Below, in pieces: positions 1,978 to 8,111 of a DNA stretch of 40,445 bases. The notes under the pieces are model-generated. The model searched no databases. It had not been told where the DNA came from and saw only the letters and a list, made by a program, of their open reading frames with translations. The DNA is from Malassezia furfur (Eukaryota): assembly GCA_052055015.1 (NCBI GenBank), contig JBQJIT010000052.1. One strand, 5' to 3'. Made by a program: the position numbers and the translations under genes. Numbering within the stretch: position 1 is the first letter of the stretch; every line of letters starts with the position of its first letter.

Positions 1978-4171
1978 ATGAGCAACAGCGTGTCGGTGAC
2001 GCTGGTGCGGCATGCCGCTCTTAGCGGGCCAGGTAAGTACACCGTGTACTGATCCAAGACACATCAGACGAATCGTTTCGGGTACTTGCATCACTTGGCC
2101 GTGCGCTGGAATCGTCTCGGCCCATTGTGATCTACACCGCACCGGACGCATCAAGCGTGCAGACGGCCGAGTCGCTGCTTCAGGTAGGTGCCGCACACTG
2201 ATGCAGGTCAACCACAAATCAAGCTCCAAACTGATTGCTACGGATCTTTTGAGCGAGCAACGGCTTGACGAAATTTCCTCCGAGCACGCACGATGGCTCC
2301 GCACGCTCGAATTTCGCGCTCAGGCAGACAACCTCGACACGCGCGCGACCGCGGTCGTCGAAATGCACGTTTTGCCATGGCTCGATACACCAGGAATGTC
2401 CCACACGGTCCTGGTTGCGGACGAAACCATCTTGCACCGCATCCTCCAGACCATCATGGCACTCCATGGCCAGCCGCCGAACATCCTGCGCGACCCGGCA
2501 CGGCGGATTTTGGCTGTGCACACAGCACCATTACAGCCAGGCGCATACCACCAGCTGCTGCTAGGTGTATCCTCGGGGCCAGACTCCGTGTGCGACGTCC
2601 GCGTAGTCTCCATGAACGAGACTGCTCACTTGCATACGCAACCAGTGGCATACCCCAGCTCGCCGCTCTTTGCTGCGCCAAGTGAACTTGCGCAGCTCGC
2701 ACGAACGCCTGAATCCTCGGCACCGAGCTCGCCCGTGGTGCCTTATCCGCCAGTCTCGCTCCATTCGTTGACACGCTCGACCCACACGCCTCCGTCTCGC
2801 AACACTGAGACGCCGCGGCCCGAGACCGCTAACCGCTCCCATCTCTCCTTCCAGAGCAATCCGTCACCGAGCCCCAGCCGTGGTCGGGCGGGGGTCAGTC
2901 TGGTGTCACTCCCACTCGGCTCTCGGTCGTCGTCGAATACGCCACAACCGCCGCGCAATCTACACCTGTACGATATGTCTACCATGATGCGCTCCATTGA
3001 CAAGTGGGAATCAGCGCGGATCGAGTCCAATGACCTGCCCGAGCCCAATCTATCGCCTCGCACCAGTACCCGCACTCTCGACCACGGGGCCACCTCGAAA
3101 TCGAGCTCGCCATTTCCAGGAAGCGGGATGCTTGGTTTCGGCAATTTTCTCTCAGGAGGTGACTCCTATGGGTCGGCAGCGAGCACGCCTACCTCGGTGC
3201 ACCGTGGGAGTGTGTCCAGCGGGACGTCCACCTCGGTTCTGAATGTCCACGGACAGAGCTCGGCGCCACTGAGTAACGTCAGTGCCTTTGCACAGAGCCT
3301 GTTTGGGCACCATACCCCGACCGGAGCCAGTGGGTCTACCGCAGGCGATGCCATGAGTATCTGGCAAAGCATCTGTGTCCGCATCTTTCCGCTTTTTAAC
3401 CACGAAACACTTGGTTCGCCCGTCGAGAGCATCGCCGACTCCACCGAGGCCTACGTGCGACTGGTGTTTGAGCGTGACGCAGCACAGGCTCTCAGCGTGT
3501 TGGAAGAGAACCTACGCAAGTCGGTTTTGATCGGCCTACTGAGTGTCACTACCAAGCTACAGGGACATGAAGATGCGTCGCTGCTCAAAGGGCTCATGAA
3601 ATCCTGGCAGTTCTATTATGGCACCGTCATACCCTACACCACAGCGTGCTTATTGCCGCTCTCGACCAGTGCAGCCCAGCTGGCCTTTCGGTACCAAGCC
3701 GCGCAGCAGCGACATCTTCCCCCCATCCAGGATGCGGAAGCTAATCCCCAGCGAACAAAAGTACTCCTACCAGCGCAGCAGGGCATTGATATCCGCCGCG
3801 TGATGCTGGTCGCCTTCCGCGATCGTGTTGTGCTACCCATTCACGACTGGTTACTGAACGCGCTGGGCGGAAAGTCTGCCCCTGATCCCTCGTTCCTGTA
3901 CCAGCATGGACCTGATATGGAAGCCGTCTCGAAAGAACTGCGCCCCTACCTGATCCAACTCGTCGGCACCCTCACGGGCCTGCACACAGACGATGCGGCT
4001 CAGGAACGCATGGAGAAACTGAACAAGAACCTTGCCTACAACCCCTCGGTTCCCATCTCGGTTGCGGAGAGCATTTCCCCACAATTCCCGATATCGCCTC
4101 ATGATTCACTGTCGCCTGGTTTCGCACTTAGTGTACACAGCAGTGCGTCGTCCATTCCCTCGGAGCCATGA
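1978..4171 (+). CDS. Fusion protein: N-terminal degenerate histidine-phosphatase (PGAM-like) domain + Ser/Pro linker + C-terminal HbrB domain (Bit61/PROTOR, TORC2 subunit family)
   Basis: Exons 1978-2032, 2059-2183, 2207-4171; introns GTAAGT..CTGATCCAAG (26 nt) and GTAGGT..CTGATGCAG (23 nt) restore frame. N-terminus reads VTLVRHA...IYTAPDASSVQTAE...MNETAHL. C-terminus has IWQSICVRIFPLF, WQFYYGTVIPY...LLPL and IDIRRVMLVAFRDRVVLP, typical of HbrB. Confidence 0.75.
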
Positions 4172-4556: not shown

Positions 4557-5198
4557 TTACCACCAGAGGCGATGGGTCGGGCAATGATAGCCTGACGGAT
4601 TTTTCAGTAGATACTCTTGGTGGTAGGGTTCGGCAATTTTGCTGTGTGAGCATGAAATACGTACAATGCCGATACAGGGACCTGCTGGATCGTGGTCACA
4701 ATGCGTTCACCTTTGGCATCAAAGTGCTTGGCTTGCACATCTTGTGTGACTTGTTGAGCTGTGCGCTCTTGCTCGGGAGTGTGCGCAAAAATAGCACTGC
4801 GGTACTGCGACCCGATGTCCGGCCCTTGCCCGTCCAGTTGCGTGGGGTCGTGCGAACGGTAAAAGAATTCGACGAGCTCAGCGTACGAGACTTGGTTCTG
4901 TGTGAGGGAAACCACGTACGGGATCAAACTCGAATTGAGCCGCCTCCGCATAGCCAGTGCGCTTGGAGCAGACTTGCTCGTATGTCGGGTTGGGGTACTT
5001 TTCCTCGTTGCCACCCACATAACCGACGTCGGACTTGATCAGCCCCTTGTTTTTAAAGTGTTTCATAAAGATGTGCTCGGTGCCCCAGAAGCAACCATTG
5101 GCAAATGTGGCGACGTGGCTGGCAGATGCGGTACTCATTTCTCGGAATACAGATGTTGATCGGCTCAAAATTCGTCGTGCACCAAAGAGGTAGGCCAT
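4557..5198 (-). CDS. msrA: Peptide methionine sulfoxide reductase MsrA
   Basis: Exons 5198-4920, 4897-4665, 4641-4557; introns of 22 and 23 nt. GCFWG active site, [38 protein letters not shown]. Confidence 0.95.
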
Positions 5199-5250
5199 AA
5201 CTAAACGGGCCAAATTCGTGCACGCACGCCCAAAATCCAACCACCTCCAC

Positions 5251-5680
5251 ATGTCATCGACTGGATCGCAGCAGGTCGTGTAAGTCGTGCGTGCTCATAT
5301 AGGTCCACCACGGCTGTGGTGTGTACGCTCGTAATTGTCGCCGGTGCATGGTTTGCCATCACCCGTGTATTTGGCGGGAAGCCGAAACCGGCGACGGGCA
5401 AGTACGATCCCAACACTGGTCTTGGTCGCGGCGCTCCTGGGTTTCGTACGTGACACTGTTGACCACAACAGAAACCAACGTGCGACGCGTTGCTCTACCC
5501 GCAGACCTCGTTGCGCGTATCCGCGCGGGGGAGCAAGTGAGCGCCGAGGAAATTACCGCAGCACAAGAACGTGTTGCAGCGGGTGAGACCACATCTACCA
5601 AACCTGTCAACGAATGGCTCCCTGCCAATACTACCAAAAAGGCACCCACTTCGCGCAGTCGTCGTTCAAAGAAGCAATGA
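5251..5680 (+). CDS. Small single-pass membrane hypothetical protein, 126 aa
   Basis: Exons 5251-5279, 5303-5445, 5472-5680; introns GTAAGT..TAG (23 nt) and GTACGT..CAG (26 nt) give one frame: MSSTGSQQVVSTTAVVCTLVIVAGAWFAITRVFGGKPKPATGKYDPNTGLGRGAPGFQTNVRRVALP...RRSKKQ. Confidence 0.8.
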
Positions 5681-6875: not shown

Positions 6876-8111
6876 TTAGTTCGCCACTGCAACTGGGCGT
6901 GTGGGGCGCACAGGCGCGTGTCGGTGGTTTGACCGCGGCTCGTTAGTGCAGCCGTGCCGAGCAGGATTAGAGTTCGTGTTGTTGTAAAGAGTGACGTCGA
7001 CACCACCAATGTTTTCGTGGTCGTGACCATCTGCGCCCTTCTTTGATTTCCCTTGGCCATAGGCACGCACCCGGAGGCGTTCCCATTCGCCAGCGGTGGG
7101 TGGTGCCAAACCTTGCTTCTCGCGCTCTGCAAAGAAGTTCCGGTTCTTGTAGGCCTCGCGAACAAGGGGCGAGTCGGTGAGCGGGGTGAGCGGAACGTCG
7201 TCGTTGAAGAGGGCAAAGTAGAAAAGACCCAAGCGGTTGAAATGCGCCTGGTCCTCCGGCGGAGCCACAACACGGTGGATCGTGGGCTTCAGGTAGCCAC
7301 CTGACAAGAAGTGCATTGCATCTCCCAGGTTAAGGACAAGTGCATTTGGGCGGTAACGCACCATACGCCACTTGTTATCCGGCATTAGCACCTCGAGCGA
7401 GGTGATGGGCTGCGACCAGAGGATCGAGACACTGTTGAAGTCGGTGTGGCCCTGAAGACGAACACCACTGACCTTGTCGTCCTCCTCCTTCGGAGCAGGA
7501 CGGTACAGTGCGTATCGCAGAAGGTCTAGGCCGCGTTTCTCCGGCTCCTTGGACAGGTTCCACAGCGTGTCAACCGGCAGCTTCAACACGAGCGAAAGGA
7601 CGTTAAGCACCTTGCGAAGGATCACGTCGTGGTTAAACACGGCGAATTCGTGGATCTCATCGATGAGCGGCTGCATCTGCACGGGGAAACGCGCACGCTT
7701 TTCCGGCGTAAACGTCTGTGAGCCGAAGTTCAGCTGCTCGATGCGGTCCTTTACACCGTCGATCTGCCAGTGGCCCATGGGCTTGTAGCCGACAAAGCTG
7801 CCTGCATTCAGCATGTCGGCAAGGCAGCGTTTCTTCTCATCGTCCGTGACATTGTCAAAGGCGTATTGGCCAATGGCAAACTGGCGCAGGACCTTTTCGT
7901 ACGGAAGGCCGTGGTTAATGGCATAGATGAATCCGTCTTGCGAAAACGCGGTGCCGACCTGCTCCACAACCTCGTTGGGGATCTGGTCAAACTCGTCGCC
8001 TTGGACCTGAGACAAATCCAGAGTGTGCAATGGGGCCCAGTCGAAGTCTTCCTTCTTTGACGGGGTCGGAGGAGTCCAGGGAGGAATCGGGTGCGACGAT
8101 GCAGCGCTCAT
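6876..8111 (-). CDS. 2-oxoglutarate/Fe(II)-dependent oxygenase (isopenicillin N synthase-like superfamily)
   Basis: DIOX_N-like LDLS...GFIYAINHGL; HTD...TIHRVV facial triad; NLGDAMHFLSGG. First ATG at 8111. Confidence 0.85.
   Translation of the reverse strand: MSAASSHPIPPWTPPTPSKKEDFDWAPLHTLDLSQVQGDEFDQIPNEVVEQVGTAFSQDGFIYAINHGLPYEKVLRQFAIGQYAFDNVTDDEKKRCLADMLNAGSFVGYKPMGHWQIDGVKDRIEQLNFGSQTFTPEKRARFPVQMQPLIDEIHEFAVFNHDVILRKVLNVLSLVLKLPVDTLWNLSKEPEKRGLDLLRYALYRPAPKEEDDKVSGVRLQGHTDFNSVSILWSQPITSLEVLMPDNKWRMVRYRPNALVLNLGDAMHFLSGGYLKPTIHRVVAPPEDQAHFNRLGLFYFALFNDDVPLTPLTDSPLVREAYKNRNFFAEREKQGLAPPTAGEWERLRVRAYGQGKSKKGADGHDHENIGGVDVTLYNNTNSNPARHGCTNEPRSNHRHAPVRPTRPVAVAN

Follow-up and report, generated by a model that had tools for sequence, protein, structure and literature searches.

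Does a Bit61/PROTOR-type subunit of target of rapamycin complex 2 (TORC2) carry in Malassezia an additional folded domain at its N-terminus, and if it does, could this domain still act as an enzyme? The question is raised by a gene on the + strand, at positions 1978..4171, of a stretch of 40,445 nucleotides (nt) of Malassezia furfur contig JBQJIT010000052.1 (assembly GCA_052055015.1), which is the window to which all coordinates refer. A preliminary description of this locus had claimed that the open reading frame (ORF) track misses the true N-terminus of the product and that removal of two micro-introns uncovers a histidine-phosphatase-like domain fused to a C-terminal HbrB domain. We consider it likely that the gene encodes a Malassezia Bit61/PROTOR-type TORC2 accessory subunit whose N-terminal domain descends from a branch-1 histidine phosphatase and is now non-catalytic.

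The reading frame opened at 1978, by the sole ATG of a short frame lying downstream of an in-frame stop (1927-1929), reaches a GTAAGT donor at 2033, and a second frame of 41 codons, from 2061 to 2183, reaches a GTAGGT at 2184. Exons 1978-2032, 2059-2183 and 2207-4171 were joined by script and gave 2145 nt, corresponding to 714 codons plus stop with 0 internal stops. All four peptide blocks that the preliminary description had quoted after removal of 2033-2058 and 2184-2206 were present in this frame. The two removed pieces, of 26 and 23 nt, both show a GTADGT-type donor, a CTGAT branch-like site 5-6 nt before the acceptor and an AG end, and an Asp codon split by intron 1 begins with G2032, the final base of exon 1. 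An alternative acceptor at 2067, which would lengthen intron 1 to 35 nt at the cost of three residues, is also in frame; we prefer 2058 as the putative acceptor because the NCBI model of the M. yamatoensis orthologue (P0007) has residues aligned to codons 2059-2067. The gene and its product are predicted to be organized as follows.

1978..2032, + strand: exon 1, with the start codon, the first beta-strand and the RH(A) motif of the histidine-phosphatase-like domain.
2033..2058, + strand: predicted intron 1, 26 nt, with a GTAAGT donor, a CTGAT branch-like site and an AAG acceptor (alternative CAG acceptor at 2067, 35 nt).
2059..2183, + strand: exon 2, encoding a helix, the second strand (IVIYTAPD) and the next helix (SSVQTAE), with Ser in place of the second catalytic Arg.
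2184..2206, + strand: predicted intron 2, 23 nt, GTAGGT...CTGATGCAG, with a CTGAT branch-like site and a CAG acceptor.
2207..4171, + strand: exon 3, 654 codons plus stop (4169-4171) in a single open frame, covering the last two thirds of the phosphatase-like domain, the linker and HbrB.
2207..2632, + strand: remainder of the histidine-phosphatase-like domain, including VLVADE, with Asp in place of the second His, and a conserved hairpin that ends in NETAHL.
2957..3010, + strand: linker motif 1 (NLHLYDMSTMMRSIDKWE), with invariant Y, D and S columns in 15 orthologues, around YDMSTM.RSI.KW.
3269..3310, + strand: linker motif 2 (LSNVSAFAQSLFGH), with invariant N, F and A columns, around NVSAFAQSLF.
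3356..3850, + strand: HbrB-like domain (PF08539), from the Pfam match; modelled helical core at about 3338-4036.

The product of exon 3 is 100% identical to database entry P0003 and 88% identical to P0004, and shares 29-45% identity with named proteins of M. psittaci, M. yamatoensis, M. vespertilionis and M. nana. Comparison within this family argues that the three-exon spliced model is right. Opposite the 26- and 23-nt gaps, P0004 has in-frame insertions of 9 and 8 residues, with the flanking exons aligning residue for residue, and frame-breaking length changes therefore fall within the proposed introns and nowhere else. The N-terminal exons, too, have homologous counterparts in the orthologues of other Malassezia, whose N-termini begin alike with 3-5 residues followed by V-T-L-V-R-H. 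With an open spliced frame and an N-terminus shared with orthologues, the claim that the ORF track had lost the true start of the protein was confirmed. The fusion of the hairpin half of the phosphatase-like domain to HbrB does not depend on the splicing model, since exon 3 alone encodes both in one open frame. Among the database entries, P0003 was seen to begin at an ATG inside intron 2 and so to be without the first two exons, and P0004 to read through the two introns, whose counterparts keep the frame in that strain or species.

At its C-terminus, the protein is clearly predicted to carry an HbrB domain of the Bit61/PROTOR type. Residues 384-548 of the exon-3 product matched the Pfam HbrB profile over positions 5-164 of 166, with an E-value (E) of 7.2e-32 and 111.2 bits for a cut-off of 22.7. 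The same region was modelled as helices with predicted local distance difference test (pLDDT) values >90, and PF08539 is present in 13/13 of the full-length relatives of the exon-3 product listed. A search against the sequences of solved structures yielded one match at E<=10, a weak one (E 0.0063) to Saccharomyces cerevisiae Bit61 (9rsq_E), extending over 221 residues and covering Bit61 322-535. A family-profile search reached 9 proteins, 4 of them outside the Malassezia group and including a Hypsizygus protein named TORC2 subunit bit61; a word search with the HbrB region reached 3 close relatives. A 2025 preprint describes yeast Bit61 as an unresolved N-terminal region (1-287) followed by HbrB (288-543), reports that its sole contact is with the helical domain of Avo3, and places it at the TORC2 periphery where it is accessible to membrane-bound factors (10.1101/2025.07.02.662585). 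The same work argues from structure that Protor1 is the Bit61 orthologue, and describes the function of Bit61 as little understood.

The N-terminal part of about 215 residues was shown by modelling to have the predicted fold of branch-1 histidine phosphatases (PGAM/TIGAR/SixA), the modelled protein being the 88%-identical orthologue P0004 and not the M. furfur spliced product. The AlphaFold model of P0004 residues 1-241 reached a pLDDT of 70.6 and a predicted template modelling score of 0.70, a moderate confidence obtained with 14 aligned sequences, on a protein that reads through both introns and with 37 residues at pLDDT <50. It displayed the alternating strands and helices expected for this family, in a three-layer alpha/beta arrangement whose strand order is the characteristic one. 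When the model was submitted to Foldseek, 225 matches were recovered at E<=0.001; all matches listed were branch-1 enzymes, including CobC, TIGAR, GpgP, PGAM5, fructose-2,6-bisphosphatase and PhoE, with modest template modelling (TM) scores of 0.37-0.55.

Searches with the sequences of the family pointed in the same direction. A 14-sequence profile, run against the sequences of solved structures, gave five matches at E<=10, all five being branch-1 histidine phosphatases (PhoE, E 0.018 and 0.019; TIGAR, 0.075 and 0.23; phosphoserine phosphatase, 0.78), although each taken individually lies above the usual threshold of 0.001. The Pfam His_Phos_1 profile (PF00300) was matched by 2/14 orthologues, P0017 with 25.0 bits (cut-off 21.7) and P0007 with 21.0 bits, just below the cut-off, over profile positions 24-167 of 194. 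In a language-model feature search, 29 of the 30 matches shared a family set made of His_Phos_1 only, with a score of 0.93, and corresponded mostly to basidiomycete "phosphoglycerate mutase" clusters; the remaining match had His_Phos_1 on all members and His_Phos_2 on 26% of them. Both halves of the protein were recognized in the Atlas model of P0017, of which the C-terminal part matched an HbrB cluster (TM 0.68) and the N-terminal part a His_Phos_1 cluster (TM 0.69).

The residues of the phosphate pocket were compared with those of PhoE and TIGAR. The first His motif of M. furfur, L-V-R-H-A at residues 9-13, is preserved, the family T-L-V-R-H-A aligning to T-I-V-R-H-G of TIGAR. In the HMMER alignment to PhoE, the second pocket Arg is replaced by Ser in M. 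furfur (Y-T-A-P-D-A-S-S-V-Q-T-A-E vs Y-T-S-T-S-G-R-A-L-E-T-A-E) and the second pocket His by Asp (V-A-(D)-E vs V-T-H-G). The Glu of LLSEQRL is placed across from the general-acid Glu of PhoE, but the alignment is poor there and the column is not a conserved one in the family. According to the column table, the Arg-His (RH) pair is kept in M. furfur, P0004, P0012, P0017, P0018 and P0019, and is replaced in P0007 (CP) and P0016 (RY), where the N-terminal alignment is confident, as well as in P0020 and P0008, whose rows are doubtfully aligned. Arg occupies the exact second-Arg column in no orthologue, P0017 alone having an Arg one residue away. The second-His column contains D, N, S, G or A, except for a His in P0007, which is without RH, and in P0006, whose model is without the N-terminus; both catalytic histidines together were found in no orthologue examined. 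The strongest conservation in the domain was found in the C-terminal beta-hairpin (PLxPGAYHQ...VR...LxExAHL) rather than in the pocket.

The second pocket Arg and the second pocket His are each needed for efficient catalysis by histidine phosphatases. Since two pocket residues are lost and no orthologue combines the two histidines, the domain is most likely a non-catalytic module, and the drift of the pocket argues against a conserved role in phosphate binding. Taken together, these results agree with most of what the preliminary description had read from this gene. The HbrB assignment held, with a Pfam match and the similarity to yeast Bit61; the branch-1 histidine-phosphatase pattern was recovered in the five profile matches, in the P0004 model with its Foldseek matches and in the Pfam match of P0017; and the kept RH, the Arg to Ser change and the loss of the second His (in ADE) were found again in the PhoE/TIGAR alignment and the column table. 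Pfam and structure prediction, which it had named as checks, gave a clear HbrB domain, a His_Phos_1 match above the cut-off in one orthologue, and a histidine-phosphatase fold for the P0004 model. Its suggestion of a pseudo-phosphatase or phospho-metabolite-binding module is retained for the pseudo-enzyme, in view of the two replaced pocket residues, and not for conserved phosphate binding, as the pocket varies among orthologues.

Between the two domains, two motifs of the linker are nearly invariant in 15 orthologues, the linker elsewhere being variable and of low confidence. Linker motif 1 was modelled as a low-confidence helix at residues 11-22 (block pLDDT 51-55) and linker motif 2 as a helix at 110-119 (block pLDDT 37-52). 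They look like candidate binding motifs that would fold on a partner. A Bit61-type protein of an agaricomycete has a possibly related stretch, Y-D-S-K-L-V-S-R-E-M.

The explanation that we favour would run as follows. In the Malassezia lineage, the usually disordered N-terminus of the subunit would have been replaced or extended by a domain derived from a branch-1 histidine phosphatase. This domain would no longer hydrolyse phosphate esters and may have been retained as a structural or protein-binding module, with the conserved face of the C-terminal hairpin, and not the phosphate pocket, as its putative functional surface. A linker of about 240 residues, probably disordered for the most part and bearing the two conserved motifs, would tether it to HbrB. 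By homology with yeast Bit61, HbrB would dock on the helical domain of Avo3/Rictor at the edge of TORC2, and the N-terminal domain would thereby be held at the TORC2 periphery.

This architecture is apparently a genus-level feature of Malassezia. The named family members come from M. psittaci, M. yamatoensis, M. vespertilionis, M. nana and Malassezia sp. CBS 17886, all of them Malassezia, and the restriction to the genus rests on these 5 named species together with the absence of other matches. A profile of the N-terminal domain, searched against 1.84 billion representatives, gave 13 matches at E<=0.001, of which 12 were family members or fragments and 1 was an unrelated repeat protein, with 0 canonical phosphatases at this threshold. 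Bit61-type proteins of Hypsizygus and Coprinellus, and two long others, contain PF08539 only and have low-complexity N-termini. For two species, NCBI models place both domains on a single polypeptide, as do several ORF-only predictions. In the literature, no paper was found that joins HbrB with a histidine phosphatase, Bit61 with phosphoglycerate mutase or Bit61 with Malassezia, and among the listed titles and abstracts on TORC2 and Malassezia none dealt with a Bit61 fusion. The fusion is uncharacterised but not wholly unseen, since precomputed annotation already assigns both PF08539 and PF00300 to one Malassezia record, P0017.

Removal of a very short intron could be examined at a neighbouring gene of the window.

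4604-5294, - strand: MsrA/PMSR gene (peptide methionine sulfoxide reductase), split into two overlapping frames, with an intron at 4898-4919.

The two MsrA frames match the Pfam PMSR profile at positions 2-59 and 57-130, and removal of a 22-nt piece, GTACGT...CACAG (4898-4919, minus strand), joins both halves cleanly. This predicted 22-nt intron is a validated internal positive control, at the level of domain continuity, for the 26- and 23-nt introns of the Bit61-like gene. To our knowledge, it is among the shortest spliceosomal-type introns with domain-continuity support. A scan with a loose micro-intron pattern gave 11 matches vs 8.2 ± 3.0 in shuffled sequences, which is not discriminating and was not relied on. 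Three other candidate micro-introns were noticed on the + strand, at 146-185 (40 nt), 246-278 (33 nt) and 327-349 (23 nt), each with a GTAYGT donor, a CTAAC branch-like site and a CAG acceptor. Their presence points to a + strand gene, interrupted by several very short introns, at the left edge of the stretch. Intron 2 of the Bit61-like gene is near-identical in style to the 23-nt candidate at 327-349. That Malassezia genes contain very short introns is stated in a review (PMC7426719).

A Ser/Pro/Thr-rich ORF on the minus strand (493-2151, from its first ATG) is divergent from the Bit61-like gene and overlaps exons 1-2; a Pfam scan of this ORF gave no match. Where it overlaps these exons, it translates into a sequence full of R, H, C and W that is not protein-like, the distal part being Ser/Pro-rich, and its GC content at third codon positions (GC3) is 0.52 over the overlap vs 0.68-0.69 in the distal part. 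Exons 1+2 have codon-position GC values of 0.63/0.53/0.65, which mirror those of exon 3 (0.61/0.50/0.66). As a competing gene over exons 1-2, the minus-strand ORF was rejected for the overlap, in view of the GC3 drop, the translation and the Pfam result. Should it be a genuine gene, its start is most likely one of the later ATGs, the first of which lies at 1866 and would leave only about 110 nt of intergenic space to the Bit61-like gene. Further along, a minus-strand ORF at 6876-8111 encodes 2-oxoglutarate-Fe(II) (2OG-Fe(II)) oxygenase and DIOX_N domains, and appears to be an ordinary neighbour with no evident link.

Beyond the limits already given for the profile E-values, the TM-scores and the P0004 model, several points weigh against the proposed explanation. 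None of the three M. furfur pieces submitted to Pfam (the exon-3 product, exon 2 and the first 144 residues of exon 3) matched His_Phos_1; their sole N-terminal matches were to PAS_4, at E 0.011 and 0.15, and were deemed noise. A 5-sequence profile, run against the sequences of solved structures, retrieved no phosphatase, its one match, at E 1.3, being an unrelated ion channel. Because the scan of 1.84 billion representatives with the N-terminal domain found no bona fide phosphatase, the sequence relation to phosphatases is remote, at the edge of detection. On the C-terminal side, the HbrB model compared with fold libraries gave cullin repeats as best matches and no Bit61 chain, and a 2022 review presents the link between yeast and mammalian HbrB proteins as contested and their function as obscure (PMC9555796). 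That the protein belongs to TORC2 in Malassezia we infer from homology only. Finally, a domain that keeps RH could conceivably have some remaining chemistry or bind phosphate.

The last of these points leads to two other ways of reading the N-terminal domain. A dead domain that binds a phosphorylated metabolite, a lipid head group or a phosphoprotein through its Arg-His pair, and so informs TORC2, would agree with the phosphate-binding nature of the fold, with the RH kept in M. furfur and 5 other rows of the family, and with a Glu that may sit at the general-acid position. A ligand site is expected to be the most conserved part of such a sensor, yet conservation is concentrated in the C-terminal hairpin, and the pocket itself is not conserved, RH being changed to CP in P0007 and RY in P0016, the exact second-Arg column never holding Arg and the second His found in two orthologues only. 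We regard such a sensor as unlikely, even if it is conceivable for the species that keep RH, and the direct metabolite input to TORC2 raised in the preliminary description as unsupported. That the domain is instead a still active phosphatase, in which the RH dyad and recruited basic residues act on a TORC2-related substrate, is very unlikely in our view: the nucleophile His is there together with the Arg next to it, and the fold relatives include the protein phosphatases PGAM5, SixA and Sts-2, but 2/4 residues of the phosphate pocket are replaced (Arg to Ser, His to Asp), and close relatives have lost the nucleophile itself, which is unexpected for an enzyme under selection.

The architecture could also be right and its assignment wrong, the protein not being a TORC2 subunit in Malassezia and HbrB serving another pathway of polarity or growth. 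The weak match to Bit61 (E 0.0063), the weak sequence links within the HbrB family reported in PMC9555796 and the origin of the HbrB name, an Aspergillus polarity gene, would fit this possibility; it seems rather unlikely given that the next-nearest named relative by profile is the Hypsizygus protein annotated TORC2 subunit bit61, that Bit61 was the sole match among solved-structure sequences, with 221 residues covered, and that the HbrB domain of Bit61 binds the helical domain of Avo3, with Protor1 argued to be orthologous (10.1101/2025.07.02.662585). An error of the gene model, with the phosphatase-like and HbrB parts as separate products or the upstream exons lying outside the gene, appears extremely improbable. 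The overlap of the minus-strand ORF 493-2151 with exons 1-2 would speak for it, as would the status of the exon joins and both splice junctions, which are predictions from sequence. Against it stand the hairpin half and HbrB in one uninterrupted frame of 654 codons, the single polypeptides with both parts in the NCBI models of two species, and the codon-position GC of exons 1+2, which mirrors that of exon 3 where the minus frame drops to a GC3 of 0.52. A TORC2 accessory subunit with a degenerate, non-catalytic phosphatase-derived domain is thus the reading that we retain.

Malassezia is a dominant human skin fungus and is genetically tractable, and a genus-specific feature of a growth-control complex should be of some interest for its biology. 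The function of Bit61/PROTOR has been called obscure or mysterious (PMC9555796; 10.1101/2025.07.02.662585), and an added folded domain could offer a concrete handle on it. TORC2 has been called the master regulator of plasma-membrane lipid homeostasis (PMC9555796). More speculative, and quite improbable in our judgement, is that TORC2 of the lipid-dependent Malassezia gained a lineage-specific receiver domain, a degenerate module that would bind a phosphorylated lipid head group, a metabolite or a phosphoprotein, or recruit a partner through the hairpin, and so tune TORC2 at the membrane. Taken as a natural gene fusion, it would in that case also hint that Bit61/PROTOR proteins of other eukaryotes work with a protein of the histidine-phosphatase family. 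In practical terms, ORF-based gene calls in Malassezia appear to lose N-terminal exons that lie behind introns of 22-26 nt, at least two database entries (P0003 and P0004) being affected. We expect a moderate pay-off from further work on the domain. Its catalytic activity is probably lost, the pocket varies among orthologues, and yeast can do without the subunit.

With respect to known systems, the Malassezia protein has in common with S. cerevisiae Bit61 and Bit2, and with Schizosaccharomyces pombe Bit61, a C-terminal HbrB domain placed after a long, poorly ordered region. In the part of the Bit61 study that was available (10.1101/2025.07.02.662585), the 287-residue N-terminus of yeast Bit61 is unresolved, with no folded domain described, whereas the N-terminus of the Malassezia protein is predicted to be a folded histidine-phosphatase-like domain. 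Human PRR5/Protor-1 and PRR5L/Protor-2 are assigned to the HbrB family and argued to be Rictor-binding orthologues of Bit61 (PMC9555796; 10.1101/2025.07.02.662585); no sequence match to them was obtained in this analysis, and the available parts of these two sources mention no phosphatase-like domain for them.

Compared with the branch-1 histidine phosphatases themselves (PhoE, TIGAR, PGAM5, SixA, CobC and fructose-2,6-bisphosphatase), the Malassezia domain has both the second pocket Arg and the second pocket His replaced, and a variable insert in place of their cap region. The tau55 domain and Sts-2, which were among the fold matches, are precedents for this fold being fused into non-metabolic proteins. 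The phosphatase domains of tau55 and Sts-1/Sts-2 keep the catalytic set, and the partner domains and complexes of TFIIIC tau55 (Tfc7) and Sts-1/Sts-2 (UBASH3) are unrelated to TORC2. The closest counterparts are two Malassezia records labelled as hypothetical proteins: MSPP1_001154 of Malassezia sp. CBS 17886 (P0017), which has the same two domains, with precomputed PF08539 and PF00300 annotation, and keeps RH, and MYAM1_000365 of M. yamatoensis (P0007), which has the same two-domain architecture and has lost RH while keeping the second His.

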